Source of the DNA: Candidatus Adlerbacteria bacterium
Lineage (GTDB): Bacteria; Patescibacteriota; Minisyncoccia; Phycocordibacterales; SBAW01
Length of the DNA: 49,560 nucleotides
Direction: 5' to 3'
NCBI GenBank assembly: GCA_037135035.1
Contig: JBAXLB010000001.1
Coordinates: 160,465-210,024 of the forward strand
Shown here piece by piece: positions 2,993-49,450 of this stretch. The position numbers were made by a program, and so were the translations under genes. Under the pieces are notes generated by a model. The model searched no databases. It saw nothing but the letters and a program-made list of their open reading frames with translations, and was not told the origin of the DNA. How positions within the stretch are numbered: the stretch's first letter is position 1; each line of letters begins with the position of its first letter.

Positions 2993-3041
2993 ATAAAAAA
3001 AGAAGACCCCGCTTTCTTCCGGAAGGAAGTTGCGAGGTCTT
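2993..3041 (-). terminator. Intrinsic terminator of cassette A
   Basis: Imperfect GC hairpin followed on the minus strand by TTCTTTTTTTAT; abuts rseP stop. Confidence 0.7.
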
Positions 3042-3062
3042 GAAGAATGAGTGGTAGTTGAT

Positions 3063-4085
3063 CTACCAGAGATTATCGTTGCCGAGACGTCCGTTGACGA
3101 TAGCGCACAGCTGATCCCAGCTCAACTTGGTGCGTTCCTCGGGCTCAAGAGGAGCCTTTTTGCTACCGCACAGGATGAGCCTTGTCCCACCGTTTTCGCC
3201 AGGGTGTGCATACCAGCCGCCGAAATACTTGTTCGGCCCTGTTGCCCGCAGGTCATGGCCGGCAGCATCGATGCCCCGTGCCTTGGCTTCGGCGATGCGG
3301 ATAGCACTGACGACGCTCAGCATTCCCTTCTCGACCGCGTTGGGAGCGTTGCGGTTGAGAGCAATGCCAACCTGGAAGTGCTTGCGCTTCAAGATCGTCC
3401 ACATTACGACGTCGGCGCCGTCTTCGAATGCGGCGTCACGCAATTGAGGATTTCCCCAGAGCAGACAGACGTTCATGCCGTTCTCTAGGGTGTAGCGCTT
3501 GCTGAGCTTGTGGAGATTCACGGCGCTCTGCAGACGTGACGTTTCTTGGTTGTAGAGGATGTCGAACATTTCGAACGCCCTCTGACAACATGTTCCCCAG
3601 TCGATTTCGTTCGACGTGTGGTCGCGGTGGTAGTTGGCCAGGCCGCGAAGTTGGTAGTGCAGTGACAGCCGGTCGACCTGTTCGGCTCGATCGGTTGCGA
3701 CCGTCAGCTTGATGAAGGGCCACAGGCCTTCATCCGTGTGGAAGCCGTAGTGCTCGCACATGAGCTTGAAGCTCGAAGTGTCCGTAAGGCCCTTGCCGTG
3801 TTGGTCTAGCGGTCCGCCTCCCGTGTCCATTTCCAGGACCCGGTGGCCGACTCTGTCCTCGTCCGGCAGCGGAACACCTGCGGGCAACAGGACAACTTTG
3901 TATTCGCTGTCTCCCACGATGAACCGAACGGCCTTCCACAAGCATGCGTAGGCGTCGGTGTCGGGGTGTCTGTGGGTGACAAGAATGAAGGGGAGGTCTT
4001 CATCGAGGTTGGGAACCCAGGCTTTCACCTTTGCTCTCAATCTCGCTTGTGCTTCATCGTACCGAAGCTGCAGGAGGGTCTCCAT
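3063..4085 (-). CDS. Cassette A: DHH/MYG1-like putative phosphoesterase
   Basis: LVTHRHPDTDA (HxxPDxD) and EMDTGGGPLDQH motifs; SD AAAGGA 7 nt upstream of ATG. Confidence 0.65.
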   Translation of the reverse strand: METLLQLRYDEAQARLRAKVKAWVPNLDEDLPFILVTHRHPDTDAYACLWKAVRFIVGDSEYKVVLLPAGVPLPDEDRVGHRVLEMDTGGGPLDQHGKGLTDTSSFKLMCEHYGFHTDEGLWPFIKLTVATDRAEQVDRLSLHYQLRGLANYHRDHTSNEIDWGTCCQRAFEMFDILYNQETSRLQSAVNLHKLSKRYTLENGMNVCLLWGNPQLRDAAFEDGADVVMWTILKRKHFQVGIALNRNAPNAVEKGMLSVVSAIRIAEAKARGIDAAGHDLRATGPNKYFGGWYAHPGENGGTRLILCGSKKAPLEPEERTKLSWDQLCAIVNGRLGNDNLW

Positions 4086-4141
4086 GCACGTATCCTTTCA
4101 ACAGTAGAGAGTGTGGCTAACACCCGGGAACAGCCTTTAGA

Positions 4142-4170
4142 ATAATAGCATGTTTAATATTAAAAGTCAA
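4142..4170 (-). promoter_or_regulatory. Sigma70-type promoter of cassette A
   Basis: TTGACT-17-(TGc)TATTAT. Confidence 0.8.
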
Positions 4171-4178
4171 TAGAGATC

Positions 4179-4218
4179 ATAAAAAAAGAAAGCCGCTCCA
4201 GGTGTTACTGGAGCGGCT
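4179..4218 (-). terminator. Intrinsic terminator of cassette B
   Basis: Perfect 11-bp stem agccgctccag/ctggagcggct, tail TTTCTTTTTTTAT. Confidence 0.85.
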
Positions 4219-4236
4219 GTAGTCGTGCCTTGCGGC

Positions 4237-4947
4237 TTAGCGCTTTTTGTCTTTCGCCTTGGGCTTGCGGTGCTGCATAGTCTTTTCGCCCTTGGCCAGA
4301 TTGACCACGTTCTCGGTCTCGCTGGCGATTGACCAGCCAGCCGCCAGGAGGCGGTCGAGTTGTCCGTCGCCAGTGGACTGACGTGCCGGCGCGGAAGGAG
4401 TATTTTTCTCCAGCACCGACGGCGTAGTGGTTTCGAGGGTCGGCATCTCGAGCTTCATCGCGGTGAGTGGTACGAGAACCACTGCACCCTTGAGATGCCC
4501 CGGCGTCTTGAACGTGGTCCAGTCCGCCTCGGCGTAGGGGATTAGCCTCTTCGCCTTATCGTTGAATCCGTAGAGCACGAAGATCGCGTGGGTCGCTGCG
4601 ATGTGCATAGACGTCGGCAGGAGGTCGACATAGACGAACTTACGCCCGTCCTCCATGTCCTTCTGCCAGATCTTCGCACGGGCGACGATAGTGTCGCCGT
4701 AGTAGGCTTCCAGCTCCTCGGCAGTTTCGCCGTGCACGAAGAAGTTGAGTATCCCCCCGTGCACGTTGTGCTTGAACTGGAGGAAGTGGATCGTCCGACC
4801 CGCATCCTCCACCGTGCTCCTGCGTGCTTCGAGCGGCACGGCGACCTGCACGACACTGCCCTCGTGCAAGAGTTTCCGGTCCAGAACGGGGACAGGAACG
4901 CGGGGTGACGAGGCTTCCGTCGGAGCGGCTGCATTTAAACCCGTCAT
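4237..4947 (-). CDS. Cassette B: hypothetical protein (236 aa)
   Basis: Long ORF with SD AAAGGA, own promoter and terminator; no family recognised. Confidence 0.75.
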   Translation of the reverse strand: MTGLNAAAPTEASSPRVPVPVLDRKLLHEGSVVQVAVPLEARRSTVEDAGRTIHFLQFKHNVHGGILNFFVHGETAEELEAYYGDTIVARAKIWQKDMEDGRKFVYVDLLPTSMHIAATHAIFVLYGFNDKAKRLIPYAEADWTTFKTPGHLKGAVVLVPLTAMKLEMPTLETTTPSVLEKNTPSAPARQSTGDGQLDRLLAAGWSIASETENVVNLAKGEKTMQHRKPKAKDKKR

Positions 4948-4999
4948 GGGTATTTCCTTTGAGTGTATGCCCGGCTAAAGGCGATGTACGGCCGAAAGC

Positions 5000-5028
5000 A
5001 CATTAACATAATACTTTAATAAAGTCAA
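5000..5028 (-). promoter_or_regulatory. Sigma70-type promoter of cassette B
   Basis: TTGACT-17-(TGt)TAATGT. Confidence 0.7.
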
Positions 5029-5079
5029 ATTATTTTACATCGTTTTGCACCAACAGTATTTTCCCCGTACAATGTCGGA

Positions 5080-10632: not shown

Positions 10633-10664
10633 AAAAAAGACCCCTCGCAAAAGGGGTCTTTTTT
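10633..10664. terminator. Bidirectional-type intrinsic terminator after greA
   Basis: aaaaaagacccct-cgcaaa-aggggtctttttt. Confidence 0.85.
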
Positions 10665-10680
10665 GTTTACAATGGTCTTC

Positions 10681-12135: not shown

Positions 12136-12140
12136 TTTTG

Positions 12141-12176
12141 TATAAAAAAAGAAAACCGCCTTACGAGAAGGCGGTT
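12141..12176 (-). terminator. Intrinsic terminator of cassette C
   Basis: aaccgcctt/aaggcggtt stem, tail TTTTCTTTTTTTATA. Confidence 0.8.
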
Positions 12177-12189
12177 AGTGAGCGAGAAG

Positions 12190-12492
12190 TCAGGAAGTTT
12201 TGGCGGGTATAGTGCCAACTAAGAAAGCATCGGGGCAGTCGTTTTTACCGCCCTTGCTGGCTGAGATGATTCTATAGGCCTTTCCTCCTATTACTTCTAC
12301 CCAAGACCCTTGGGCCTTTTTGACCGCATCCTCGTAGGACAGGTCTGGTGCTACAACGCAGGCAGAACCTGCCTTTTTGTCGAACCAGGTGATCCCAGGT
12401 GCCGGAGGCGACTTACTGGTGGCGCTTATCGCGCTAGTAGCAGCCACGAAAATTACCGAAGCGATTAGTGTCAACTCTACAGCATCAGCCAT
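12190..12492 (-). CDS. Cassette C: hypothetical exported or membrane-anchored protein (~100 aa)
   Basis: Hydrophobic N-terminus LTLIASVIFVAA, two Cys; TTGACA at 12566-12571 lies only ~10 nt upstream of the longer ORF's ATG, so start 12492 is preferred. Confidence 0.65.
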   Translation of the reverse strand: MADAVELTLIASVIFVAATSAISATSKSPPAPGITWFDKKAGSACVVAPDLSYEDAVKKAQGSWVEVIGGKAYRIISASKGGKNDCPDAFLVGTIPAKTS

Positions 12493-12607
12493 CTCTAAGT
12501 TTTCCCTCAACAAAAAACGGAACGATTTTGTATCCTTTTTAGTTGTACTACGCATGGTTTACGTGTGTCAAATAAACGGTGAAGTTGGCGGCTTTATGAA
12601 GCTTTTA

Positions 12608-12676
12608 TGTGGATAACTTTATGCGGGGAAGTGGGGCAAAATGTCATATACTGGTGAGTAGTGGGATGAAGTGGGA
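12608..12676 (+). promoter_or_regulatory. mraZ upstream region: MraZ-box GTGGG repeats and one consensus DnaA box
   Basis: GTGGG at 12631, 12661 and 12671 (10-bp phasing); TGTGGATAA at 12608-12616. Confidence 0.7.
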
Positions 12677-12690
12677 TACCCGCGAACTGT

Positions 12691-13125: not shown

Positions 13126-13130
13126 AATAT

Positions 13131-14180: not shown

Positions 14181-14185
14181 ATTAT

Positions 14186-16215: not shown

Positions 16216-16246
16216 TCAGTCCGGTACAGACGACTAACCTCATTGT

Positions 16247-17829: not shown

Positions 17830-17929
17830 AGAATAATTATATCACGGCCAATAATTGGCACATCTTTTTACGTAAAGACTGGAAAAACCCCTGAACGTAT
17901 TGTAAGGTTTGGAGGTTAGATACAACTAC

Positions 17930-18001: not shown

Positions 18002-18051
18002 TGCCAATAAAGAGTTCAAATTAGAAATACCCAATTTGGTACACTGGGTGT

Positions 18052-18699
18052 ATGAGTCAAAAAACAATTCTCGGTATAGGATCTTTACTTATTCTTATTG
18101 CTCTCGGCGCATACGGCTATACACACTACACGTCGCCGGCGTCGACTACAGTTTCAAACGCAGATGACTCGGCAATACGTGCTGTGGTAGAAGACTACGG
18201 CAAAACACTCGGGGAAGATCGGCTCGACATTGTGTCTGTCACACCGCGGGTTTCGGGGAAAGCATTCGAGTCCTACCAGGTAGAAGCGAATATGGTGGTG
18301 ATGGACGCGTCGCAAGGAGGTGGGGAAGCACCTGTTGGTGTCCAACCACTTTCGCTCACGGTTGAAAAACAGGGGAGTGCGTGGGTAATAACAGCATTTA
18401 CCAAAGGCGCATACAGCGAACTCCCGCACAGCCAAACCATTGTAGGTTTTTGGGAATGTTTGCCACACAAAAACACGAGCGGTCCGCAAACTATGGAATG
18501 TGCGTTTGGCATAGCTCGTGACCAAAGTGACGGACACTATGCAATAGACACGTCATTGATGTCGACGTACCCAGTCGACTTTCCAACGGGCACCAAAGTG
18601 CAGGTGACAGGTATTGTCACGCCGGCCAACCAATTAAGCAGTGTGCAAAAATATGACATCGACGGCGTTATACGTGCCACAAGTATTGTAAAAATATAA
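18052..18699 (+). CDS. Hypothetical membrane-anchored extracellular protein
   Basis: N-terminal TM; C-terminal beta-rich domain with CLPH...ECAFG Cys pair. Confidence 0.8.
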   Translation: MSQKTILGIGSLLILIALGAYGYTHYTSPASTTVSNADDSAIRAVVEDYGKTLGEDRLDIVSVTPRVSGKAFESYQVEANMVVMDASQGGGEAPVGVQPLSLTVEKQGSAWVITAFTKGAYSELPHSQTIVGFWECLPHKNTSGPQTMECAFGIARDQSDGHYAIDTSLMSTYPVDFPTGTKVQVTGIVTPANQLSSVQKYDIDGVIRATSIVKI

Positions 18700-18737
18700 A
18701 AAGAAAAAGCGGTTGGATTTTTAGGTCCTTCCGCTTT
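18697..18737 (-). terminator. Intrinsic terminator of cassette D
   Basis: aaagcgg...ccgcttt stem, tail TTTTTCTTTTTA overlapping the neighbour's TAA. Confidence 0.7.
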
Positions 18738-18745
18738 CAATACTT

Positions 18746-19006
18746 CTAGTAACGTCGCCGTCTGTGCGGGTAGTACGTGACGTACGCCGGGGCCGGGTAG
18801 TAGACCACTGGTGCAGGAGTGATATACGCCGACTGGTAGTACGTCACTCTGTACTGTGGCGGTGGCGGTGGAGCCGGAGCCACATCGTACACGACCGTCC
18901 TCTGCGGAGGGGGTGCGTCGTACATCACCGCTGGCCTGACCTCATAAATGGCGCACCCACCGAGGGCTACCGGCAGTATCAGGCAAGCCAAAAGAACTTG
19001 TCGCAT
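18746..19006 (-). CDS. Cassette D: small Pro/Tyr-rich putative lipoprotein
   Basis: Signal MRQVLLACLILPVALGG-C (lipobox-like), poly-Pro and YYP repeats, basic tail; SD GGGAG. Confidence 0.7.
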   Translation of the reverse strand: MRQVLLACLILPVALGGCAIYEVRPAVMYDAPPPQRTVVYDVAPAPPPPPQYRVTYYQSAYITPAPVVYYPAPAYVTYYPHRRRRY

Positions 19007-19036
19007 GTACGTCTCCCAAGATGAGAATCCTATAAA

Positions 19037-19065
19037 ACTATAGGACTTTTTTAACTCTTAGTCAA
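19037..19065 (-). promoter_or_regulatory. Promoter of cassette D
   Basis: TTGACT-17-TATAGT, one base after the yqeY stop codon. Confidence 0.8.
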
Positions 19066-19066
19066 C

Positions 19067-19519: not shown

Positions 19520-19566
19520 ATGCAGGTAATACTACCAAAAAAACCTTTCGTGATAAACTGCTTGCT

Positions 19567-20667
19567 ATGACGCAAATACTTATAGGGCTGTTGATACTTA
19601 TAGCACTCGGCAACGGTGCATTTTTATACATGTTGTGGAAAAAAGGCCAGGAGCCTGCTGCTGTGCCTCCAACCGACACGCAGGGGATGCTGTTGCTCCA
19701 AAACCAACTTGCAGAGCTTACTCGTGCGATGGACAGCAAACTAGGCGAAGGTACCAAGACAATGTCCGACTTTATGTCGAGCCAGACAAACCAGGGCCAC
19801 CAGTTGATGAGCACTATTACCAAACAAGTGCAGGAACAGTTGCTTGAAGTGGTTAAGGGTGTGACAGAAACAAAAGAGTCGACCAAGCAAGTCTTTGTTA
19901 TCGCCGAACAGCTAAGCAATTTAGAAAAAGTATTAAAAAATCAAAAACAGCGCGGTAACTTGGGCGAGGCCAGCTTGGAACTTGTGATGAGCAACATCTT
20001 GCCCCCGGGCGCGTATGCGATGCAGTTTGAGTTCCCAGGAGGGGAGACAGTTGACGCGATAATCCGCACAAAAGAAGGTTTTATCCCTGTGGATGCAAAA
20101 TTCCCGCTCGAAAACTACACTCGTATCCACGACGAAAAAGATGACGACCGCCGTAAGGAATTTGAAGAGGCATTTAAGCGCGACCTAAAAAAGCGTATCG
20201 ACGAAACGAGCAAATATGTGCGCCCCAAAGACGGCACACTGCCCTTTGCCTTTATGTATATTCCGGCCGAAAGCATTTATTACGACCTATTGAACGACGG
20301 CATAGGCGCGGTAAATACCCGGAGCCTACTGGATTACGCGCAGAATGAGAAAAAGGTAATTATTGTCTCACCCACAACATTTGCCGCATACCTACAGTCG
20401 GTGCTGTATGGCTTTAAAGCATTTAAAATTGAAGAGCAGGCAAAAGATATTGCTAAGAACGTCGAGGCTCTGGGGCGGCATATAAACGCATACCAGGACT
20501 ATTACAAGAAGCTGGGAGCAGCGCTTTCCACCACCGTTAACCACTTTAACGCCGGCACCAAGGAATTGGGCAAGATCGAAAAGGACGTGCTCAAAATTGA
20601 CGCATCGGCTGATATTGCAATAGACATTGCCGTTATCGACCGGCCACTTATAGAGGGGAAGGATTAA
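19567..20667 (+). CDS. rmuC: DNA recombination protein RmuC
   Basis: KQRGNLGE, VDAKFPLENY, FAFMYIPAESIY, VSPTT. Confidence 0.93.
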   Translation: MTQILIGLLILIALGNGAFLYMLWKKGQEPAAVPPTDTQGMLLLQNQLAELTRAMDSKLGEGTKTMSDFMSSQTNQGHQLMSTITKQVQEQLLEVVKGVTETKESTKQVFVIAEQLSNLEKVLKNQKQRGNLGEASLELVMSNILPPGAYAMQFEFPGGETVDAIIRTKEGFIPVDAKFPLENYTRIHDEKDDDRRKEFEEAFKRDLKKRIDETSKYVRPKDGTLPFAFMYIPAESIYYDLLNDGIGAVNTRSLLDYAQNEKKVIIVSPTTFAAYLQSVLYGFKAFKIEEQAKDIAKNVEALGRHINAYQDYYKKLGAALSTTVNHFNAGTKELGKIEKDVLKIDASADIAIDIAVIDRPLIEGKD

Positions 20668-20701
20668 AAAAAGAAAAGGCCGGACTTCTTCGTCCGGCCT
20701 T
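20665..20701 (-). terminator. Intrinsic terminator of cassette E
   Basis: 10-bp stem aaggccggac/gtccggcctt, tail TTTTCTTTTTTTA overlapping the rmuC stop. Confidence 0.85.
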
Positions 20702-20709
20702 GGGTCTGG

Positions 20710-21156
20710 TTAAACTTTGCTTGCCTCGTCGAAGAGAGACTCGACCAGCTTTGTGTATTGAGGTGCCCAGTCTCGAATGATAGTCAGAGTGTGGACCGCC
20801 TCGCGGTCTTCACGAATGAGGCGAAGGAGCTCGGCACGACCTTTTTGGGCCAGCTCTCGGCCTATCCTCGACCCAAACCACCGCCCACCGAAGGTGCAGA
20901 CGATGAGGATCACTGAAATGAGGCCCACCACGAACCACAGGTCATTCGTGGGGTCTGTGAGGAAGGTAGGCTTCCATTTGAGCGTTATCGCCCCGATGAA
21001 AACTAGTGCGATCACCATGCCGAACAAAGCCCCTTTTGCAGCGTTCTGCTCGTTAATGCTGATTGAGGAGAACAGCCGCTTCAGTTCCACGGACCTGTTT
21101 TGAACCTCCTGTAGAGCCGCTTGCCTCATCTTGGCATTGGCGTCGATATGTACCAT
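20710..21156 (-). CDS. Cassette E: hypothetical two-TM membrane protein
   Basis: Two hydrophobic segments; SD AGAGGA; TTGACC(21230-21235)-17-TACAAC. Confidence 0.75.
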   Translation of the reverse strand: MVHIDANAKMRQAALQEVQNRSVELKRLFSSISINEQNAAKGALFGMVIALVFIGAITLKWKPTFLTDPTNDLWFVVGLISVILIVCTFGGRWFGSRIGRELAQKGRAELLRLIREDREAVHTLTIIRDWAPQYTKLVESLFDEASKV

Positions 21157-21280
21157 GGAGTCCTCTTTTCTCGGTTGAAGGAGTCGAGGGACGTACCTCT
21201 GGCGTAGTTGTACCTATAAAAATAAGCCAGGTCAACCTGACTTGCATAAAAAGCTCTTTTTAGGTATATTGTTTCGGTCT

Positions 21281-21646: not shown

Positions 21647-21691
21647 AGAAAAAGAAAGACCGCCTAATGGAAGAGGTCTTCCGTAGGCGGT
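21647..21691 (-). terminator. Intrinsic terminator of cassette F
   Basis: accgccta...taggcggt stem, tail TTTCTTTTT. Confidence 0.8.
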
Positions 21692-21698
21692 GTTGGTT

Positions 21699-22190
21699 TC
21701 AGCCGAGCTGGCGGTAATAGGATTCCGGGTAGTGATCCGGTTCTTCGAGGAAGTCCTCGCACTCAAATTGGCGGCCGACGAAAATTGTCTGTTGAACCGA
21801 GTGGTCCACGACGGCATAAGCGCCGTCGGTGCACTTGAGAATAGTGCATTCGTCGGGGTCCCAATACTCCAGTGCCCAGTCGGGGCAGACGAAGCCGATT
21901 TCCGGCCCACTCTGGCGCGTGTGCTTCTTGCCGTCGACGAGAGTGACCTCGGCGTTAGCGGGAATGGTTGCGTCGTGGGTCTGCCCATTCGGCAAGGTGA
22001 CTCGGATGTATCCGGAGTGCTTGTCGGCGAAGTAGACCTCGATTTCGCCGTGTCGCTTGTACGACCTCTTCTGACCCGCTTTCAGGGATTGCTTGATCCC
22101 ACCGAGTCGGAGCACGACTTCGTTCTTGGCGACGTAGAGGTTGGGATAGCGGCCGAGCAGGATCGGACCCGCAAATTCTGGCAGTGCCAT
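21699..22190 (-). CDS. Cassette F: hypothetical protein (163 aa)
   Basis: SD AAAGGA 6 nt before ATG 22190; TTGACT at 22255-22260; no family recognised. Confidence 0.7.
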   Translation of the reverse strand: MALPEFAGPILLGRYPNLYVAKNEVVLRLGGIKQSLKAGQKRSYKRHGEIEVYFADKHSGYIRVTLPNGQTHDATIPANAEVTLVDGKKHTRQSGPEIGFVCPDWALEYWDPDECTILKCTDGAYAVVDHSVQQTIFVGRQFECEDFLEEPDHYPESYYRQLG

Positions 22191-22267
22191 GATCTTTCCT
22201 TTGGTTTCTGCACGGAACGTGTGCCACAGGCAAATCAGCACGTATTTATTTAAAAGTCAATAGAAGG

Positions 22268-30582: not shown

Positions 30583-30617
30583 TTAAAAAGAAAATCGCCA
30601 GCATAGGTAGCTGGCGA
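30583..30617 (-). terminator. Intrinsic terminator of cassette G
   Basis: tcgccagc/gctggcga stem, tail TTTTCTTTTTAA. Confidence 0.8.
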
Positions 30618-30629
30618 GGAAAAGGTGAA

Positions 30630-30830
30630 CCCTGGGACTGTTGGGAATGAGTTTGGGGCCCACGACTCCTCGGGGTCTTGAGGAGGTGTGGCATTCATTC
30701 CAAACCATAGCGATACGAGGGATCGCATATGTTGTCCCAGGGCCTGCTGGAAACTCGCCGGACGGAGAGGGCTGTCAGGGACGAGCGCAGCAGAACGGTC
30801 TGTCAATATCCTATACCTTGCCGTACAGGA
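30630..30830. ncRNA. Candidate structured non-coding RNA or ssDNA element (family unknown)
   Basis: Nested stems ccctgggac/gtcccaggg, ggaatga/tcattcc, ctcctc/gaggag, gcgat/atcgc, ctgctg/cagcag; no convincing ORF. Confidence 0.45.
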
Positions 30831-30831
30831 G

Positions 30832-31137
30832 TCAATCCTTCTTTTCAAGGTCCTTAAAGTACTGTTCTCTCAGTCTGGCGACTTCTCTCACCACCTCTTT
30901 GGCTGCGCCTATGCGCATGCATGCAAGACCTGTTGGCGCAGACAATAGAAGGATTGCTCCGGCTGCAAGTAATGCAGTTTCTAAAGGACTGTTTAGAGAC
31001 GTGTAAGCAAAGTAAAAACAAATGCCCCATAGCACGTAGAGGATCCTTCGAACCCTACGCCAAAACTTGAGCTCGAGCTCTGCCTCGTATCGCCTTTCAA
31101 AAGGTTCTGCAAGAACTACCTGAATCTGAGTAGCCAT
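30832..31137 (-). CDS. Cassette G: hypothetical two-TM membrane protein (101 aa)
   Basis: SD GAGGT 5 nt before ATG 31137; ctaTTGACC-16-(TGc)TACTGT at ~31181-31211. Confidence 0.7.
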   Translation of the reverse strand: MATQIQVVLAEPFERRYEAELELKFWRRVRRILYVLWGICFYFAYTSLNSPLETALLAAGAILLLSAPTGLACMRIGAAKEVVREVARLREQYFKDLEKKD

Positions 31138-31740
31138 AACGGACCTCACGAACTTCATCCACGGGAATGTGGTTAAAATTACAGTAGCAGATGAAAATGG
31201 GCGGTCAATAGTTTCCTTAATGGCAGTTTTTATCTGAAAATAATAGGGAAGTGACTCCCCCAGTAAAAGGTAAATTTTTTTAACAAGAATTTGGTGCATA
31301 TTTTTCTGCAATATATGCCAAACAAGAGAGACTAAATAGACAGACTATTTTCAAACATATTTTTGTGGGGAAGTGACTCATAGGAGATGTACAGTGCGGC
31401 ACGTAACCGCACAGCGTGTTCAAAGCAATCCTAGTCTTCTAGGCTAATATGAGTCGCAAAAGATATATTGTGCGACGTATAGTTATTAATTCCCTTCAAC
31501 CACATATAGCCACGGCTCAATCACAACGGCCAGTACTACTACCCTGCCGCTAAATATTCTTGGCTAAGGAACCGTTGCAACCTAACTAATTAAATAAAAT
31601 ATATGTCAGAAAAAACTCTTGGAAATAATTCTGTAAAAATTAGGGGAGTCTCCCCTACCGTTTCTGTTAAATTATAATTAATTTGCGTCTTTTATTTTTT
31701 ACGCTAGTATCAAGTTGTTGAGTTCCGGGAGGATTTTATC

Positions 31741-31971
31741 ATGCAGCTTGTTGCTCTCCAGCGCGTTCAAATCCTGAGCGTTAACGGCCATACGACAAAT
31801 ACAAGCGTCGTCGAATGTCAGCGACAGGGGTGCAACTATACATCCCCAGTGAGTGAGAGCGTTATATGTTCTGTCTATTTTGGTAACGGCGAATGGCAGA
31901 CGTATCTTATGTGTTCTCATACATGTGTGATGGAGATCCTGACTCCACCGGCCAAATGTGATGTGCACTAA
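31741..31971 (+). CDS. Cassette H: small Cys-rich hypothetical protein, possibly Zn-binding
   Basis: GGGAGG SD; CxxxxC...CSxxC; TTGCGT-16-TAGTAT upstream. Confidence 0.65.
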   Translation: MQLVALQRVQILSVNGHTTNTSVVECQRQGCNYTSPVSESVICSVYFGNGEWQTYLMCSHTCVMEILTPPAKCDVH

Positions 31972-31982
31972 AGCTTCGGTCT

Positions 31983-32012
31983 ACCCACCACTCACAGGTG
32001 GGTTTTCTTTTT
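31983..32012 (+). terminator. Intrinsic terminator of cassette H
   Basis: acccacc/ggtgggt stem, tail TTTTCTTTTT. Confidence 0.8.
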
Positions 32013-32023
32013 GAACGTTTAAA

Positions 32024-43032: not shown

Positions 43033-44409
43033 TTATTTTATATAACTTTCGACAAGAGCTAGAAGGAGACGTACCGGGGCACCAACCGCACCTTTGGAGA
43101 GGAATTCGGCAGGGTGAGATGTCATGCGCGGTGCCATGTCGATGTGTGCCCACGGGCAGTCTAGGTCTTTGGCAAACTCGCGCAAAAACATCCCGCCCGC
43201 AATAACTCCCCCTTCGCGGCTGTTGCCCGCAGTCGAAATGTTGGGTACGTCGCCAAAATGGCCTTTGGTCATCTCTTCGTATTCTTCCCATAGTGGGAAC
43301 GGCCAGACATAATCGCCAGAAATTTCACCAAGTTCGCGCAGCGTATCTTCCAACTGCTGGTCGTTTGCCATAACGCACGACGCTTGCGTGCCAAGGGCTA
43401 CAAGTGCAGCCCCCGTGAGTGTTGCCACGTCTACGACAACCGCAGGGTTATATTTTTTTGCATACGTAATACCGTCGGAGAGGATAACGCGGCCTTCGGC
43501 GTCGGTGTTAAGTACTTCAATTGTGCGGCCCGACATCGAGCGCAGCATGTCGCCCGGGCGCACGGCATTTTGCCCCGGCATGTTTTCCACTGTTGGGATA
43601 AGTCCTACAACATTACTTTTCAGTTTTAACTTTGCCGCAAGTGCCACCGTGTGCAGCACAGCGGCGCCTCCCGACATGTCCATGTGCATTTCGTACATAT
43701 GGTCGCCCGGCTTCAAGTTAAGCCCGCCTGAGTCGAAGGTGACGCCTTTGCCAACAAGTACAACGGGAGCTTGCGACTTAGGAGCGCCCCAGTATTCGGC
43801 AATAACAAACTGAGGCTCGTTGTCTGAACCTTTGCCAATGCCAACAACACCGCCCATCCCAAGCTTTTCCATTTCCTTCCGGCCGAGCACGATTACTTTT
43901 GTACCGGCTCCTTTTAAAACTTTTTTTGCGAGTGCACTAAATTGCTTTGGTGTTAAGTCACCGCCTGGAGTATTGCTAAGCTCGCGTGCTGCATTAACCT
44001 CTTCCCCTGTCCAGTGGCCAACTTTTGCCCCCTCGATTCCTTCTTTAGAAATATTCGGCAAGCAGACAACGTCAACACTTGCAAAGCCGTCCTTCGGTGT
44101 GCGCTTGTATGTGTTGTGTTCGTAGCCCGCCATCACAAACGAAATGGCACTTACCTTCCCAACTTCTTTGTCAGAAAATTCTTTTGGTGCGAGTGACTTC
44201 AAATCCTTAAAATCGACAGCAATAGACTTGATGCGGTTTTGCTTCGCGACCGCAACAACTTTGCGTGTAAACAATACAAATTTCCGGCGGTTCAGATTCT
44301 TTTCCTTTCCGTATCCAATAGAAAGTATTTTTCCATCAAAACGGTTCAAACTACCTTCAATAAACTCTACTCGTACCGCATTTTTCTCCGCAGTTGGCTG
44401 AAATTTCAT
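43033..44409 (-). CDS. pepA: Leucyl aminopeptidase (M17)
   Basis: GKGVTFDSGGLNLK, DMSGG, NTDAEGR, DVATLTG. Confidence 0.95.
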   Translation of the reverse strand: MKFQPTAEKNAVRVEFIEGSLNRFDGKILSIGYGKEKNLNRRKFVLFTRKVVAVAKQNRIKSIAVDFKDLKSLAPKEFSDKEVGKVSAISFVMAGYEHNTYKRTPKDGFASVDVVCLPNISKEGIEGAKVGHWTGEEVNAARELSNTPGGDLTPKQFSALAKKVLKGAGTKVIVLGRKEMEKLGMGGVVGIGKGSDNEPQFVIAEYWGAPKSQAPVVLVGKGVTFDSGGLNLKPGDHMYEMHMDMSGGAAVLHTVALAAKLKLKSNVVGLIPTVENMPGQNAVRPGDMLRSMSGRTIEVLNTDAEGRVILSDGITYAKKYNPAVVVDVATLTGAALVALGTQASCVMANDQQLEDTLRELGEISGDYVWPFPLWEEYEEMTKGHFGDVPNISTAGNSREGGVIAGGMFLREFAKDLDCPWAHIDMAPRMTSHPAEFLSKGAVGAPVRLLLALVESYIK

Positions 44410-44522
44410 AAGCTAGCGAGTGAGAGAAATAAAGCTCGCTTTAATTTCCGAGCGAGCGACGGTTATATGAGACGAAGTGCTCATATATTTATTCTAGCTC
44501 TATTCTTGGGTTTTTTGGAGAC

Positions 44523-44582
44523 TTGACAAACAGTATGAATGAGAGTATAATTATAAAGGTTTACAACGAGCAATTTAGGAGG
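44523..44582 (+). promoter_or_regulatory. Consensus promoter and SD of cassette I
   Basis: TTGACA(44523-44528)-17-TATAAT(44546-44551); AGGAGG 44577-44582. Confidence 0.9.
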
Positions 44583-44587
44583 CCCTC

Positions 44588-44887
44588 ATGGCTCGCTTGA
44601 TCCTTTCAATCATCGCCGCTTCTTTCTTCTCAGCAACCGTCGCGTCGGCACAGAGTTACGAAGTGCCGAAGATGAACTATACAGGGCTCTGGAGGCTCTG
44701 CAAGGACGAGGCCAATCCCGACAATTGTCGGAATATGGTCGAGCGGATGTCGCTGGCAAGCCCCGCGTACGATAAAGCTGCGAAGACGCTCAACGGCGTC
44801 GTCAAGGCTTCGGACGAACTCAAAGCGGCGAACGATGAGTTCAAGGCGCAGTATCCCAACTTGTGGGACCGGCGCTACAGCAAGTAG
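44588..44887 (+). CDS. Cassette I: small secreted hypothetical protein
   Basis: Sec-type signal MARLILSIIAASFFSATVASA-Q, Cys pair, helical C-terminus. Confidence 0.8.
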   Translation: MARLILSIIAASFFSATVASAQSYEVPKMNYTGLWRLCKDEANPDNCRNMVERMSLASPAYDKAAKTLNGVVKASDELKAANDEFKAQYPNLWDRRYSK

Positions 44888-44892
44888 AATTT

Positions 44893-44943
44893 AGCCCACC
44901 AGGGCTGCGGAAAACCCTCCGCGGCGTGGTGGGTTTTCTGTTT
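44893..44943 (+). terminator. Intrinsic terminator of cassette I
   Basis: cccacca...tggtggg stem, tail TTTTCTGTTT. Confidence 0.75.
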
Positions 44944-44967
44944 GTATAATCTTGCTACAATTGTCGC

Positions 44968-45528
44968 ATGTCAGGACTTACTTTACTCACTATAGGCAAA
45001 ACACATTCTGGTAAAAGTACATTTGCAAAAGAAATTGCTACCTCTATTCCAAACTCGGTAATTTTAGAGACTGATACAATCGCATTGTTTTTGCGTTCAC
45101 ACTATCTCTCGCTTCATTCTCTCGATCTCGACCACAAAGGCAGTTTTTCAGACCCGTCTCTTAAGTTTTTGGTTTACTGCACTATTTTAGAATTTGCTTT
45201 AAAGCAAGGCTCGAACTGTATTTTGAGTAATTCAAATATGTACGAAAATGGACGTAAACAAGTGCTCGATATTATCAAGAAGTATCCGGGGAAAACGATA
45301 GGCGTGTATTTTAATTATCCAGAAGAAGTGCTTTTTGAACGCGTAAAAAATTCACAGAGAGATACCAAGGTGCTTAGTGTCTCCAAAGATTTTAACGAAC
45401 TTATTGTAAAACAACGCGAGCGTTTCCAACCGCCTAACCCATCTGACTTTGACTACTTTTTTGAAGTCACAAACCCAGACCAATTGTCTGAAATTTCTAA
45501 AGAGATTATTGAATTATATAAGCAATAG
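44968..45528 (+). CDS. P-loop kinase-like (AAA_33-type) ATP-binding protein
   Basis: Walker A GKTHSGKST near the N-terminus, RxxxR lid-like segment. Confidence 0.8.
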   Translation: MSGLTLLTIGKTHSGKSTFAKEIATSIPNSVILETDTIALFLRSHYLSLHSLDLDHKGSFSDPSLKFLVYCTILEFALKQGSNCILSNSNMYENGRKQVLDIIKKYPGKTIGVYFNYPEEVLFERVKNSQRDTKVLSVSKDFNELIVKQRERFQPPNPSDFDYFFEVTNPDQLSEISKEIIELYKQ

Positions 45529-46782
45529 AATTTTTTCTGCAGTTTCTTTACCACTTGCCAGAGCTGCTTCGACAGTACCGTTGTCGTGACCTTGTGTTAA
45601 TGCTTCGCCAGCGAAATATAGTTTATTAGCAACAGGTTTTCGAAGCTCGGCTATTCCCTCTTCACTCCAAGGCGTTGCATAGCTGTACACCCCTTGCGCA
45701 TACGGGTCGGCAGGCCAATTAATAATTTTATAGTTGGTGAGTTGCTCTTTCAATTCACTAAGCGAAATTTTAAAAATATTCGAAAGCGACTGCAGCGCTG
45801 CATCCAAAATTTGCTCATCTGAAAGTTTCGACATTTCCAACGCTTGTGGTCCTGGCAACCATCCTGTCAGGACAGGTCGCTCTTCTGGATATTGAGTCCA
45901 CCACGTTGGAACTTTTTCGCTACTCAACATAAAAAATAAACGTTCGAATATTTGCTCTCGTACACCTGTCCACCATTTTGTTTTAAAACGCAAAAGCATT
46001 TTTATCACCGCACCGTATCCCATCTTTTCAACCGCAGCGAGTTTTTCTGGTATGGCAGGAGTGTAGGAAATCTGCGACACCAAGGGTAGTGGTACAGTGA
46101 GTATCACCTTGTCGGCTTTATATTCGACGCCGTTAGCTGTAGTTACCTTAACGACCGAACTTGTATGGTCAATCGATGTGACACATGTATTGAAATGAAA
46201 TTCAACTTTGTGTGTTTCGGCTTCTTGTTGGAGATAACGTAGTATGGGTCCGTATCCTTCCTTAATGTTCATTTGCATCCAAGTCGAAGAATCAAGCATT
46301 TCTTCGCGGAGGCCAAACGTGCTGGCGCGTGCTATGTCAGCTGCATCGTACCCTTCTGTCCAACGACACACAAAATCCCACAGTGCTGCGTGCGTGTCTT
46401 TAGGAAAATTCTTTTTCAAGAATTCTTCTACAGAAATATCTTCTGTAAGTTCGCGAAGTTTTTGTTCAAGTTGTGGGTCGTGTGGCGCAGCCCCTGCGAC
46501 TTTTGTGGGCTCTCCATCGCGAACATTCCACCATTCTGTTGGATGCGTTAGCGTAAGGCCTAACTCTTGTGCGAGTGCCTTTGTAACTGGTGCTTTCCCA
46601 TGAATAAATTCAGCACCACCCATTGCTTCGTATCCAAAATCACTTTCTGATAATGGATATATACGCCCGCCAATCCTATCGCGCGCTTCTAAAATAATTA
46701 TTTTTTTACCTGCCCGGGCAAGTTCTCTAGCAGCCATCAAACCTGCTGCACCCGCGCCGACGATTACAACATCTGCATTCAT
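45514..46782 (-). CDS. Flavin-containing amine oxidase family protein
   Basis: GAGAAG, LEARDRIGGR, GAEFIHG, WPADPYAQGVYS, FAGEA. Confidence 0.92.
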   Translation of the reverse strand: MNADVVIVGAGAAGLMAARELARAGKKIIILEARDRIGGRIYPLSESDFGYEAMGGAEFIHGKAPVTKALAQELGLTLTHPTEWWNVRDGEPTKVAGAAPHDPQLEQKLRELTEDISVEEFLKKNFPKDTHAALWDFVCRWTEGYDAADIARASTFGLREEMLDSSTWMQMNIKEGYGPILRYLQQEAETHKVEFHFNTCVTSIDHTSSVVKVTTANGVEYKADKVILTVPLPLVSQISYTPAIPEKLAAVEKMGYGAVIKMLLRFKTKWWTGVREQIFERLFFMLSSEKVPTWWTQYPEERPVLTGWLPGPQALEMSKLSDEQILDAALQSLSNIFKISLSELKEQLTNYKIINWPADPYAQGVYSYATPWSEEGIAELRKPVANKLYFAGEALTQGHDNGTVEAALASGKETAEKILLLI

Positions 46783-46785
46783 TTA

Positions 46786-48117
46786 CTATTCTTTTGTTTC
46801 AGTTTCCGACAAGGGCATGTCGATACGGCTCATGTCACGGGGGAACATGGTTGCTTCGCGGATATTTTTGAGGCCAAGGATTTGCATAGTTAGACGTTCG
46901 GCACCAAAGGAAAAACCCCCTTCAGGCGGGACGCCATAACGGAAGGCTTCCAAAAACATTTCAATTTTCTTTGGATCCATCTCCCACTTTTCGACATGGT
47001 CCATAAGCTGGGCAAAGTCGTTTATGCGTCGTCCGCCCGAAAGCCACTCTATCCCGCGGCACAAAAGGTCCATCCCTTCGTTAACCTCCGGTTTTTCGGG
47101 GTTTGGATAAACATAAAAAGGTCGGTCACGCGTTGGGTACCCATAGACGTACACAAAGTCCGAGCCAGTTTCTGTTTTTATAATTTCACAAAGGTTGCGC
47201 TCCTGCTCGGGGTTGAGGTCCTTGCCGAACGGAAGACCGAGTTTGGTAAAGGCTTCGTTCAACGTCAGAGTCGGTGTTTTTTCTATCATCGTAGGCAGAG
47301 TTGCGTCCAAAAATTTGAGCTCTTCGCTGCAACGCAACTCGAGTTGGCCTAATATGTAGCGCACCGTTGCCTCGGACATGTCGCGGACATCTTCCCACGA
47401 CTCAATAAAGCCCATCTCGGCGTCGAGGCAGACTATTTCGGTCAGGTGGCGTGTGGTGACGCTGGGTTCTGCGCGGAATACTTTGTTGACCGAAAAAACA
47501 CGCTCAAACGCGGTCATCATTATTTGCTTGTAGAGTTGTGGAGACTGGGTAAGAAATGCTTTTTTGTCGAAATATTTTACTTCAAAAACTTCGGCACCAC
47601 CTTCGGCTGTGGCTGGGGTGATAACTGGAGATTGGAATTCAAAAAAGTCTTGTGACTTCATGTATTCGCGGAAGGAGTCGATGATAACTGCTTGTACCTT
47701 AAAGATTGCTTGCAAGCGCGGGTGGCGTAGCGTGAGCGCACGGTGGTTAAGCTCTGTGGGTAGGTCGAGGTTGTATCCGTCAACAGACATGTCAAAGGGT
47801 AGCGGTTCGGCCTTTGCCAACACAACAAGCCCGGTTACTTCCAGTTCGATAGTACCGTTCCCTACTTTTGCATTAACATTTTTCTCGGGGCGAGCATTTA
47901 CTTTGCCCTGCACCTCTACAACATATTCGTTGCGAGTTTCTTTTGCAGTTTCAATTGCAGCCGAACTTGGCAGCACAACTCCTTGCACGGTGCCGCTTCG
48001 GTCGCGGAAATCAAAAAACACCATCTTACCCTGGTCGCGCCGAACGCTAACCCAGCCTTTAATGGTTACTTCTTCCCCTGTCTTTCCTTCCAATTCTCCA
48101 ATGAGTGTTCGTGTCAT
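46786..48117 (-). CDS. aspS: Aspartate--tRNA ligase, archaeal/eukaryote-like short type (probably non-discriminating)
   Basis: OB fold, EGGAEVF, QSPQLYKQ, FRAE, LSGGRRI, YGVPPEGG; 443 aa, no GAD insert. Confidence 0.9.
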   Translation of the reverse strand: MTRTLIGELEGKTGEEVTIKGWVSVRRDQGKMVFFDFRDRSGTVQGVVLPSSAAIETAKETRNEYVVEVQGKVNARPEKNVNAKVGNGTIELEVTGLVVLAKAEPLPFDMSVDGYNLDLPTELNHRALTLRHPRLQAIFKVQAVIIDSFREYMKSQDFFEFQSPVITPATAEGGAEVFEVKYFDKKAFLTQSPQLYKQIMMTAFERVFSVNKVFRAEPSVTTRHLTEIVCLDAEMGFIESWEDVRDMSEATVRYILGQLELRCSEELKFLDATLPTMIEKTPTLTLNEAFTKLGLPFGKDLNPEQERNLCEIIKTETGSDFVYVYGYPTRDRPFYVYPNPEKPEVNEGMDLLCRGIEWLSGGRRINDFAQLMDHVEKWEMDPKKIEMFLEAFRYGVPPEGGFSFGAERLTMQILGLKNIREATMFPRDMSRIDMPLSETETKE

Positions 48118-48121
48118 AAAT

Positions 48122-49066
48122 TTAAAGTGTTACTCCAACTTTTTTTCGTACGTCTTCCATTTTCTTTGCTGCATATTCTTTTGCTTTGGCGCTTCCCTCT
48201 TCTATAACTTTTATAACGTCGGCGTCAGTTATACTGTTTCGTTTTTCACGCATAGGAGCGATAAAGTTCTCCAAATCTTCGATAAGCATCTCTTTTAAGA
48301 TTTTGTAACTACCTTTGTTTGTCTCATATATGGGACTAAGCTCGTCTTCGCTGCGCAAAAGTTTGTGTATCGCATATACATTTTCTGGCCGCTCGCCAGA
48401 CGAGTCTGTCACAATGCTCATGACAGCTTTTGTAATTTCTTCTTTTGTGCCAAACAATGGAACAATATTGCCATAACTCTTACTCATTTTCTTTCCGTCG
48501 GTGCCGGGTACAACTGCAATTTCTTTCTGGATTAATTCTTTTGGCTCGGTAAATGTTTGGCCATAGGTGTTGTTGAATTTAGATGCGGCCTCACGTGCAT
48601 ATTCAATATGCTGGCGTTGGTCCTCGCCCACAGGCACTACGTCAGTGTCGTAGAGCAAAATATCGGCAGCCATAAGCATGGGGTAGGTAAACAACCCTGC
48701 ATTTGCCTCAAGCCCTTTCGCAACTTTGTCTTTGTACGCGTGGCCAAGCTCCAAAAATGGCACGGTCACCAAGCAATCAAAAATCCAGGCGGCCTCGGTG
48801 TGTTCGCTTACGCGCGATTGTTGAAAGATAGTGGCTTTGTTTGGGTCGACACCCACAGCCAAGTAGTCGCGTACAACATTAAAGATACTTTCGCGTACAA
48901 GCTTCGGGTCTTTCAGTGACGTCAGCGCATGGTAGTCAGCTATCATCAAAAAACTTTCGTACTCTTCGTACATTCCTAAAAATGGTTTGAGTGCGCCAAA
49001 ATAGTTGCCTATATGCAACGTACCGCTCGACTGCAGCCCCGTCAAAAGTCGTTTTTTGTCTGACAT
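48122..49066 (-). CDS. trpS: Tryptophan--tRNA ligase
   Basis: HIGNY, YPMLMAADIL, VPVGEDQ, KMSKS. Confidence 0.97.
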   Translation of the reverse strand: MSDKKRLLTGLQSSGTLHIGNYFGALKPFLGMYEEYESFLMIADYHALTSLKDPKLVRESIFNVVRDYLAVGVDPNKATIFQQSRVSEHTEAAWIFDCLVTVPFLELGHAYKDKVAKGLEANAGLFTYPMLMAADILLYDTDVVPVGEDQRQHIEYAREAASKFNNTYGQTFTEPKELIQKEIAVVPGTDGKKMSKSYGNIVPLFGTKEEITKAVMSIVTDSSGERPENVYAIHKLLRSEDELSPIYETNKGSYKILKEMLIEDLENFIAPMREKRNSITDADVIKVIEEGSAKAKEYAAKKMEDVRKKVGVTL

Positions 49067-49181
49067 TATGAAGATACTATAGCAAAAAAAGCCCTACAGT
49101 GCGCGAATGGAAACCTATTGACGCAGGTCTATGATTATGTTAAAAATTACATCGGCAAGTCCGCCAAAATTGCGAGGAATA

Positions 49182-49385
49182 ATGACAAATTGTGAGCGTG
49201 TAAAAACCTTCATGACTCCCCTCACCAAGGATGAGTCTTCCTGTGAAGTGGTCGATTCCAAGATCAACAGGTGGATCAAGGACGCCGCCCCCGAAGGCAA
49301 AGCCGGTATCCTGGTGAAACAAATCACCACGACCATCGTCGGCAGTCAGCTCATCACCCAGCTTCTCTATGAGCTCAAGAATTAG
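49182..49385 (+). CDS. Cassette J: small hypothetical protein (67 aa)
   Basis: ctaTTGACG(49118-49123)-17-TAAAAA; GAGGA before ATG 49182. Confidence 0.65.
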   Translation: MTNCERVKTFMTPLTKDESSCEVVDSKINRWIKDAAPEGKAGILVKQITTTIVGSQLITQLLYELKN

Positions 49386-49400
49386 AGTTCGTCAACCCGC

Positions 49401-49438
49401 CCGCCCCAGCAACGATGATTGGGGCGGTTTTCTTTTTT
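49401..49438 (+). terminator. Intrinsic terminator of cassette J
   Basis: ccgcccca/tggggcgg stem, tail TTTTCTTTTTT. Confidence 0.8.
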
Positions 49439-49450
49439 ACAGTCTTTGCA

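Follow-up and report, generated by a model that had tools for sequence, protein, structure and literature searches.

Single-gene units with their own expression signals between housekeeping genes of a Candidatus Adlerbacteria genome

The terminal 49.6 kb of contig C1 in a Candidatus Adlerbacteria genome (Parcubacteria, Candidate Phyla Radiation (CPR)), a stretch of 49,560 nucleotides (nt) referred to here as the window, carries ten small units, each consisting of a predicted promoter, a Shine-Dalgarno (SD) motif, one open reading frame (ORF) and a GC hairpin, set between housekeeping genes. How a genome of 660 kb (G000; 13 contigs, 48.8% GC, 94% complete) comes by such self-contained genes, and whether a machinery of their own moves them about, as an earlier note on this DNA had proposed, is the question addressed here. 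Unit-type genes do not use the ordinary gene signals of this genome, and comparison with relatives supports their being discrete modules of gain, loss and replacement at fixed sites. We consider it moderately probable that they are monocistronic accessory modules from a GC-richer pool, exchanged by recombination at operon boundaries without a dedicated integrase.

Expression signals of units and core genes

The units are A (2993..4173), B (4179..5030), C (12141..12573), D (18697..19066), E (20665..21237), F (21647..22263) and G (30583..31211) on the minus strand, and H (31681..32012), I (44521..44944) and J (49115..49439) on the plus strand. In all ten, a -35/-10 pair with a 16-18 nt spacer is followed by a purine-rich SD, placed 5-12 nt ahead of an ATG, by a single ORF and by a GC hairpin. 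Two corrections to the first reading concern G, whose ORF (31158..30832, 108 amino acids (aa)) lies on the minus strand, and C, F and J, whose ORFs begin at the internal ATGs 12492, 22190 and 49182, since their longest frames extend back over the promoters. Each hairpin has a near-perfect GC stem (~14-44 nt) and a T tract directly after it, with energies between -11.9 and -30.7 kcal/mol for the nine units covered by an energy-based scan, the hairpin of G being read by eye. The tail after the stem follows the form T(3-5)-C-T(5-7) in every unit (TTCTGTTT in unit I). Combining a GC hairpin with a U tract, 3' of the stop codon and on the same strand, these elements have the features of intrinsic (Rho-independent) terminators, as judged from sequence.

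A custom dicodon-model caller yielded 686 genes in the genome (89% coding), which tblastn against the whole genome of a congener, G021 (58% GC), divided into 450 found (conserved) and 236 not found (variable). Strong terminators follow 65 of the 236 variable genes and 62 of the 450 conserved ones (p 1.9e-5); promoters scoring at least 10/12, which are nine times denser in intergenic than in coding DNA genome-wide, precede 23/236 versus 17/450, and both signals occur together at 20/236 versus 10/450. In the first 20 kb, 46 terminator-like sites compare with 26.4 +/- 5.2 in shuffles. The terminators themselves differ in type. Those of conserved genes read AAAC-stem-GTTTTTTGTTT, with the T run first broken by G after 5-6 T in 22 of 62, and those of variable genes read stem-TTTTCTTTT, where in 26 of 65 the first break in the T run is a C that comes after 3-5 T. 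The tail motif TTCT[TG]TT accompanies 33 of the 65 variable but 4 of the 62 conserved strong terminators (p 1.7e-8), and genes with a strong terminator carrying this tail are called class-2 here (n=37).

Translation signals divide along the same line. A strong SD precedes 62% of class-2 genes and 4% of conserved genes (n=443; background 3.5%), and 41-59% versus 2% when starts are assigned blind to the ribosome-binding site. Conversely, a leaderless-type -10 box 5-9 nt before the start is found at 33% of conserved genes and at 0% of class-2 genes (background 3%), with no -35 above random at these core promoters. The commonest upstream 5-mers are AGGAG, GAGGA and GGAGA for class-2 and GTATA and ATACT for core genes; the core pattern persists in core genes whose upstream neighbour is closer than 40 nt, the GTATACT-type box standing 5-9 nt before the start even within apparent operons. 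Strong SD and class-2 tail coincide in 23 genes, 0 of which are found in G021. The split recurs in G021 itself (tail 22/72 versus 3/45, p 0.002; strong SD 64% versus 4%). In G124, from another family of the same order (37% GC, 400 kb examined), core genes are likewise leaderless-like (35%), and the class combining SD and class-2 tail was not seen there, with an SD in 0 of 10 class-2 genes and SD-positive genes at 24/411 against a background of 4.5%.

Codon usage follows the same division. The GC content at third codon positions (GC3) is 0.61 in class-2 versus 0.50 in conserved genes (p 5e-10), and among variable genes 0.60 with a strong SD (n=49) and 0.45 without (n=187). Units A, B, D, E, F, I and J reach GC3 0.67-0.77, compared with a median of 0.496 and a 95th percentile of 0.586 in conserved genes, and their AAG share is 0.50-0.89 compared with 0.28. 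The ribosomal-protein operon has AAG 0.50, GAG 0.21 and GC3 0.53, so the bias of the units is not simply that of highly expressed genes.

In canonical SD initiation, a GGAGG-type motif of the mRNA, 5-12 nt before the start, pairs with CCUCC of the 16S rRNA. The 16S gene of this genome (C7:7122-8583) ends in ...GTGGAACAATTCAATT (also shown as ...GGAACAAUUCAAUU) without CCTCC; the only copy nearby stands ~420 nt beyond the gene, within a terminator hairpin that follows a tRNA. G021 likewise has a 16S 3' end without CCTCC, and the motif is missing in 27 of 27 genomes of the order with a readable 16S 3' end (this genome included; 28 loci, L066-L093), whose ends share a conserved ...GGAWYAWUUCAA.... 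The units therefore do not fit canonical SD-led initiation, carrying the motif where the 16S lacks CCUCC. From the CCUCC-free 16S and the -10 boxes at core starts, leaderless mRNAs seem to be the prevailing form in this lineage. That one subgroup of Parcubacteria has lost the anti-SD motif has been described (Tsurumaki et al. 2022, RNA 28:1041, PMC9297842), and the 16S genes without CCTCC in this genome, G021 and 26 other genomes of the order agree with the accessible part of that paper, which reports no minority class of SD-led genes within such genomes. A literature search found no work linking Parcubacteria or Patescibacteria with leaderless genes, and among the titles listed for SD motifs, accessory genes and horizontal transfer none concerns this subject.

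Much of what the earlier note had described is borne out by sequence, promoter scan, hairpin energies, GC3 and AAG share: ten units of this make-up, a preference for AAG and C-ending codons, and eight of ten units pointing head-on into a resident gene, with H meeting an ORF of the lmo0937 family and J the C-terminus of dnaJ. Two outcomes that would have spoken against a special class, core-like codon usage and a signal pattern equally common on core genes, were not observed; the units are atypical in the first and the pattern is far rarer on core genes. As a general rule, the head-on bias was rejected, the window's 8/10 not being seen among units with SD and class-2 tail genome-wide (10 convergent, 12 co-directional; 29% of all genes are convergent).

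Turnover at fixed sites

Cargos C to J were compared with G015, G021 (whole genome), G007 and G050, and A and B across the genus. The flanks of the units are housekeeping genes (rseP/proS, lysS/mraZ, rmuC/rplU, recR, pepA, dnaJ) syntenic with the four congeners. Against G015, G021 and G007, tblastn reveals a syntenic backbone with unit-sized indels, and the unit ORFs are missing from all three, except for a 28%-identical A in G015. The rseP/proS gap measures 53 bp in G021, ~1.4 kb in G015 (A only), 2.1 kb in this genome and 10 kb in G007. Unit B is absent from G015, the indel spanning exactly the stretch from tail to -35. The rmuC/rplU gap, which holds unit E, is empty in G015 (53 bp) and is occupied in G021 by different cargo ending in a tail of the same type, and the rplU/recR gap, the site of F, is 81 bp in G015. 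Other small ORFs occupy both of these gaps in G021, and a hairpin-TTTTTCTTTTT after one of them abuts the rmuC stop, like the tail of unit E in this genome. Unit D is absent from G015, G021 and G007 and present in G050, with its ORF partly replaced in a G050-like strain; unit I is absent from G015, where pepA adjoins the amine oxidase gene.

The close relative G050 (87-96% nt identity; core proteins 95-100% identical) refines this picture. Its alignment to the window breaks at seven places, namely the A ORF, 17547-17927, F, 31215-31345, H, 44410-46787 and J; units A, F, H, I and J account for five of these, one more is next to G, and the remaining one concerns another small ORF. At the F site, G050 carries 2.3 kb of different sequence whose breakpoints fall at the tail and the -35, so that indel edges coincide with these two elements in F as in B. 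In place of H, it has 1.16 kb with different ORFs, and after one of these stands a hairpin with TTTCTTTTTT, a class-2 terminator. The segment 44410-46787, which contains unit I together with a kinase-like ORF and the amine oxidase gene, is missing, and the J site is reduced to 68 bp with a hairpin only, whose arms resemble the sequences flanking J. Unit C has a near-identical promoter and terminator in G050 around an ORF body that is partly alignable at ~55-60% nt identity (by-eye estimate). The ratio of nonsynonymous to synonymous substitution rates (dN/dS) against G050 is 0.37 for A, 0.33 for B, 0.36 for D and 0.42 for E, versus 0.00-0.14 for ten resident genes.

Indels of the entire unit thus concern B, E, F, I and J. 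The earlier note had suggested looking for empty sites and for sites with exchanged cargo; both kinds were found in G015, G021, G007 and G050, and content varying between the same pairs of core genes at rseP/proS, rmuC/rplU, rplU/recR, pepA and dnaJ matches the pattern of hot spots of horizontal gene transfer, or genomic islets. Such hot spots between conserved core-gene pairs have reportedly been described by Oliveira, Touchon and Rocha. The present case resembles them in that one interval holds 0 to 10 kb of varied content and turnover concentrates on few intervals; it differs in that each islet is one very small transcription unit, in a genome of 660 kb, and that the islets share a grammar foreign to the host core. 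Contigs from four DNA runs aligned on 12100-32099 add population data: most pieces of X2 and X3 agree with the window at 99% or better, and both runs carry those units that they cover, X5 covers unit F at ~96% identity, and X7 has the same joints as G050, which may make it the same population and not independent evidence.

The two units followed across the genus, A and B, both keep their place. Unit A lies between rseP and proS in 9 of 9 relatives inspected, B lies beside A in all three genomes that carry it (G050, G042, G056), and no cargo was seen at a second site. The A ORF is 43-45% identical to that of G050 at the amino acid level, compared with 99% for the adjoining proS, and it is 59% identical to that of G042 and 57% to that of G056. 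That A is nearer to these two than to G050, despite the near-identity of the G050 core proteins, speaks for allele replacement at a fixed site. The nine positional orthologues retain promoter and terminator at protein identities of 27-58%, and eight of them keep the purine core of the SD at the right distance while the sequence around it changes. Conserved synteny across the order, a further outcome that would have spoken against acquired modules, is not what these data show, being limited to A, which has homologues in 12 of the genus's 79 other genomes and was inspected at 9 loci, and to B, in 3 genomes.

Origin and movement of the units

On the favoured reading, the units are genuine accessory genes of a class that is present throughout the genome in the gaps separating conserved operons and whose products are small and mostly membrane-bound, secreted or of unknown kind. 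Whole modules are inserted, deleted or replaced at fixed hot spots, and in A and C the ORF has been exchanged, or has hyper-diverged, within a conserved promoter/terminator frame. Their grammar, with predicted -35/-10 promoters, a 30-120 nt leader, a GGAGG-type SD, a hairpin with T4-C-T5 tail and GC3-rich codons, stands beside a core grammar, likewise read from sequence, of -10-only promoters, leaderless mRNAs without SD, 16S without anti-SD and T6-G tails. Unit anatomy, the distinctness of the class, its turnover and its fidelity to sites are shown by the comparisons above. We infer that the modules are drawn from a GC-richer gene pool common to Adlerbacteria and that they may enter either by homologous exchange through conserved flanks or frames or by short-homology or illegitimate insertion of taken-up DNA; beside essential operons, only insulated units would survive. 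No dedicated integrase would take part.

Several points weigh against this reading. The class-2 genes of G021 are compositionally ordinary (GC3 0.76 versus 0.77), so that a foreign origin would be visible only in the low-GC host, and no donor was identified. Scanning viral contigs with A, B and F returned no close relatives, although single-protein scans of this kind detect close relatives only and leave room for a phage origin. Unit A keeps its position, SD and tail type down to 27% identity, which points to long residence and selection and not to recent import. The SD would stand on the units without a known reader, as no CCUCC is present in the 16S across this anti-SD-less order. On the side of method, the promoters and terminators of the units are predictions from sequence alone; the automatic flag for SD and class-2 tail hit only four of the ten window units (B, F, I, J), which makes the genome-wide counts rough; and the conserved label depends on one congener and a home-made caller, with short genes harder for tblastn to find.

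Some of these points would suit a different explanation, possible in our view and yet rather unlikely, in which the units form an endogenous, specialised expression class: envelope, secreted or conditional small proteins made from leadered, SD-bearing, strongly terminated transcripts, with fast diversifying evolution and easy loss producing the patchy distribution. The constancy of site, promoter, SD-like core and tail in the nine A orthologues, the ordinary composition of the class in G021 and the diverged C ORF between near-identical signals would all be expected, as would the hydrophobic helices or signal peptides recognised by eye in at least five cargos (C, D, E, G, I), which look membrane or secreted. 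Such a class does not account for GC3 of 0.67-0.77 against 0.50 in the core, high expression being no explanation given the ribosomal-protein values above, nor for whole-unit indels and unrelated cargo at the same sites, nor for an A allele nearer to distant species than to a relative whose adjoining proS is 99% identical; nor was the class seen in G124, from another family of this anti-SD-less order.

A bolder view, which we hold to be improbable, would place two expression languages in this one 660-kb genome, a leaderless core and classical signals for an exchangeable accessory pool, with the promoter/terminator frames acting as homology arms for swapping cargo between species, in effect a recombinase-free cassette system. 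The SD-like element would then be read by something other than the lost anti-SD, since selection keeps it in orthologues only 27-58% identical. The flexible part of this tiny CPR genome is separable from its core by expression signals alone. Should the signals be fossils of import, they would offer a simple marker for recently acquired genes and a handle on the partners with which uncultured symbionts exchange DNA; should they be functional, as the conservation in A orthologues suggests, ribosomes without anti-SD would still respond to an SD-like element, which bears on initiation after anti-SD loss.

As for machinery, the units have nothing in common in sequence except generic promoter and tail motifs, and neither flanking repeats nor att-like sites recur among them. 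Short direct repeats flank G (~50 nt), an insert at 17551 (15 nt) and the 3' end of A (15 nt, exact); they differ in sequence from one another and fit short-homology recombination. A single tyrosine recombinase (PF00589), Xer-like, is encoded in the genome, on another contig and 82% identical in G021, and a search for Y1/HUH transposases, the transposase family looked for, found none; at 94% completeness, absence of a recombinase or transposase is not proven. Given site fidelity, the absence of shared repeats and a single conserved recombinase, the chromosome-wide acquisition machine of the earlier note finds no support, and the dispersal it had envisaged was not observed. The units do not behave as a transposable element or miniature inverted-repeat transposable element either, having no shared sequence, differing flanking repeats and no Y1 transposase found.

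Of known systems, phage morons are among the closest. Hendrix and colleagues reportedly described these as promoter-gene-terminator units between phage genes, and the units likewise combine promoter, ORF and terminator in an insertable, self-contained gene between unrelated genes, with atypical composition, unknown function and patchy presence; unlike morons, they are flanked by housekeeping genes and lie outside any phage or prophage. Integron cassettes share with them the format of single-gene exchangeable modules and an end hairpin more conserved in structure than in sequence. An attC site forms an imperfect palindrome in which core sites are paired (R''/L''...L'/R') and some bases are extrahelical, and an integron has its IntI integrase and attI next to a tandem row of cassettes that lack promoters. 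The units, in contrast, are dispersed, have their own promoters and terminator-like hairpins, carry no shared core site at either end and have no adjacent IntI-type integrase, the sole PF00589 protein being encoded on another contig.

It is very improbable, for these reasons, that a dedicated cassette system operates here, with the hairpin and TTTTCTTTTT as a structure-specific recombination site (attC-like or the target of a hairpin enzyme) and the enzyme encoded elsewhere. Its appeal lies in a structure conserved in ten of ten units, while the stem sequence is not, beside a conserved short motif; in a tail lying directly against the rmuC stop in G000 as well as in G021, despite different hairpins and cargo; in J, which appears to sit between the arms of a hairpin intact in G050; and in indel edges at tails. 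The perfect GC stems with T tracts nevertheless look like those of intrinsic terminators, no second core site accompanies the promoter end, the one tyrosine recombinase is conserved at another locus, no cargo was found at two sites, and A and B keep theirs across species. Lastly, the idea that several short ORFs are spurious frames in AT-rich spacers with chance promoter- and terminator-like sites is barely credible, since its grounds (dicodon scores per codon of 0.17-0.32 for called unit ORFs against mostly 0.35-0.83 for conserved genes, C, D and H missed by the caller, and promoter-like sites of at least 9/12 showing no excess over shuffles in the first 20 kb, 18 versus 15.1 +/- 3.6) are outweighed by intact A, D, E and G in G050, dN/dS of 0.33-0.42, an SD at the right distance in ten of ten units and class statistics that hold in two genomes, the low dicodon scores following from atypical, GC3-rich codons.

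Cargo proteins, individual units and neighbouring genes

The description of the cargos as orphans holds for family libraries and is otherwise overstated, A, B and F having homologues. NCBIfam gave no match for the nine cargos tested (A-I) and PADLOC none for the ten; PHROGs returned three weak matches only (E 4.6e-4 to 5.4e-3, function unknown), which were not used as evidence. Unit A has a borderline Pfam match to ChrB_C (E 2.7e-5), and the Atlas search gave a feature score of 0.97 and a TM-score of 0.66 to ChrB_C/MYG1-like clusters, placing it in a wider family without a name and with a predicted ChrB_C/MYG1-like fold; some Atlas clusters of this family are labelled viral, a lead only. Unit B has four relatives among 5.8 billion proteins, all source-named Candidatus Adlerbacteria, with Atlas feature scores all below 0.8 and a poor model (predicted local distance difference test, pLDDT, 0.45), so that B was assigned to no Atlas family. 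Unit F has 66 phmmer matches, the best at 40% identity and most to a C-terminal domain of ~55 aa. A word-based search with E and F found no cluster besides their own.

In unit A, the promoter (4142-4170; TTGACT/17/TATTAT, given as -35/spacer/-10, with a TG) and the SD AAAGGA precede an ORF at 4085..3063 (340 aa) and a terminator at 3003-3041 with tail CTTTTTTTAT, and the leader holds the conserved element GGCTGTTCC.GGGTGTTAGCC. An exact 15-nt direct repeat has one copy (2968-2982) at the 3' end of rseP and the other (3120-3134) antisense to the C-terminal codons of A, bracketing the stop and terminator of A, with a chance expectation roughly estimated at ~0.002; it may be the footprint of an event that placed or replaced the 3' end of A. 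Unit B has a promoter at ~5000-5028 (TTGACT/17/TAATGT), SD AAAGGAAA, an ORF at 4947..4237 (236 aa) and a terminator at 4191-4218 with tail TTCTTTTTTTAT. A 5' leader sought across all units was shared by A and B only, loosely by I, and a genome scan for it returned mostly noise. The A and B leader element (...GGCTGT.C...TTAGCC..CA.ACTC; 4085-4173 and 4948-5030) is more conserved across species than either protein and may be a common regulatory RNA or protein-binding site. CTATTGAC was tried as a unit-specific extended -35 and rejected, with 6 intergenic and 5 coding occurrences being too few.

Unit C comprises a promoter at ~12542-12571 (TTGACA/18/TACAAC), an ORF at 12492..12190 (100 aa, with an N-terminal hydrophobic helix) and a terminator at 12154-12176 with tail TTCTTTTTTTAT. 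Unit D has a promoter at 19037-19065 (TTGACT/17/TATAGT), SD GGGAGA, an ORF at 19006..18746 (86 aa) whose product is Pro/Tyr-rich with a lipoprotein-type signal LGGC, and a terminator at 18705-18738. The promoter of unit E (~21207-21235; TTGACC/17/TACAAC) stands back to back with that of rplU, and is followed by SD AAGAGGA, an ORF at 21156..20710 (148 aa, two hydrophobic helices) and a terminator at 20672-20707, with the tail overlapping the rmuC stop codon. Unit F combines a -35 at 22255-22260 (TTGACT/17/TGATTT, with a weak -10) with SD AAAGGAAAG, an ORF at 22190..21699 (163 aa) and a terminator at 21659-21691 with tail CTTTCTTTTTCT.

Unit G opens with a -35 at 31203-31208 (TTGACC/16/TACTGT); its product has two hydrophobic helices by eye, and the ORF is intact in G050 (106 aa). 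A 3' untranslated region of ~200 nt leads to a hairpin at ~30596-30616 with tail ATTTTCTTTTTAAAA. Imperfect direct repeats of ~50 nt (30542-30592 and 31226-31289), a copy of the neighbouring terminator region, flank the unit, the right one lying within the 130-bp stretch (31215-31345) missing in G050. The gene-poor DNA from 31215 to 31680 contains three copies of a GGGAAGTGACTC hairpin module (30561, 31246, 31368), a stretch that may represent scars of former units or an RNA, and a 35-nt piece within 31447-31489 is 94% conserved in G015 and G012, with no match in Rfam. An Rfam scan of the window returned tRNA-Glu only, which leaves the hairpins and the 31.3-32.3 kb gap without explanation by a known RNA family. 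Unit H consists of a promoter at 31682-31709 (TTGCGT/16/TAGTAT), SD GGGAGGA, an ORF at 31741..31971 (76 aa, Cys-rich) and a terminator at 31983-32003 with tail TTTCTTTTTG.

Unit I has a full-score promoter (44523-44551; TTGACA/17/TATAAT, 12/12), SD AGGAGG, an ORF at 44588..44887 (99 aa, signal peptide) and a terminator at 44893-44935 (-30.7 kcal/mol) with tail TTCTGTTTG. Close to it, a 62-nt element (44407-44468) containing GCGAG/CTCGC half-sites immediately precedes the pepA start and marks the left edge of the 2.4-kb segment missing in G050. Further copies stand at C1:109589-109642 (83%), at about 5 sites in G021 and some 10 in G010, and ahead of proS in G050, oriented to that gene as here to pepA; the element may be a portable leader or attenuator or a small repeat element. 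Unit J has a promoter at 49118-49146 (TTGACG/17/TAAAAT), SD GAGGAA, an ORF at 49182..49385 (67 aa) and a terminator at 49401-49427 with tail TTTTCTTTTTTAC.

Pfam names for the resident genes agree with those given before (RseP-type M50 protease, prolyl-tRNA synthetase (ProRS), MraZ, YqeY, RmuC, L21, RecR, SLT with a weak match, GreA, an M17 aminopeptidase, an amine oxidase and two aminoacyl-tRNA synthetases). NCBIfam identifies the 49-aa lmo0937-family ORF at 32024-32173 on the minus strand, and the window ends within the C-terminus of dnaJ, also on the minus strand. In the rseP/proS interval of G007, the ~10 kb of other DNA spans G007:C26:12007-22076 (L016-L017). A 92-aa ORF at 17551-17829 on the minus strand lies in the insert 17547-17927, which is absent from G050, G015, G021 and G007 and flanked by a 15-nt direct repeat (17538-17552 and 17878-17892) copying the 3' end of the upstream 435-aa ORF (16247-17554), to which no search gave a name; with core-like codons and no class-2 tail, this is a different kind of insert.

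Two observations concern aminoacyl-tRNA synthetase genes of the window. The class II lysyl-tRNA synthetase (LysRS) gene lysS (10663-12135) is inverted relative to its neighbours in G021 and G070; its best match is no better than E 1e-7 in 14 of the 24 other genus genomes searched and absent in 4 more, so many congeners may use another LysRS. The DNA of 46787-49057, with genes of the asparaginyl/aspartyl- (AsnRS/AspRS) and tryptophanyl/tyrosyl-tRNA synthetase (TrpRS/TyrRS) types, is only 76% identical to G050, compared with 87-96% elsewhere, and looks like a recombination import of core genes.

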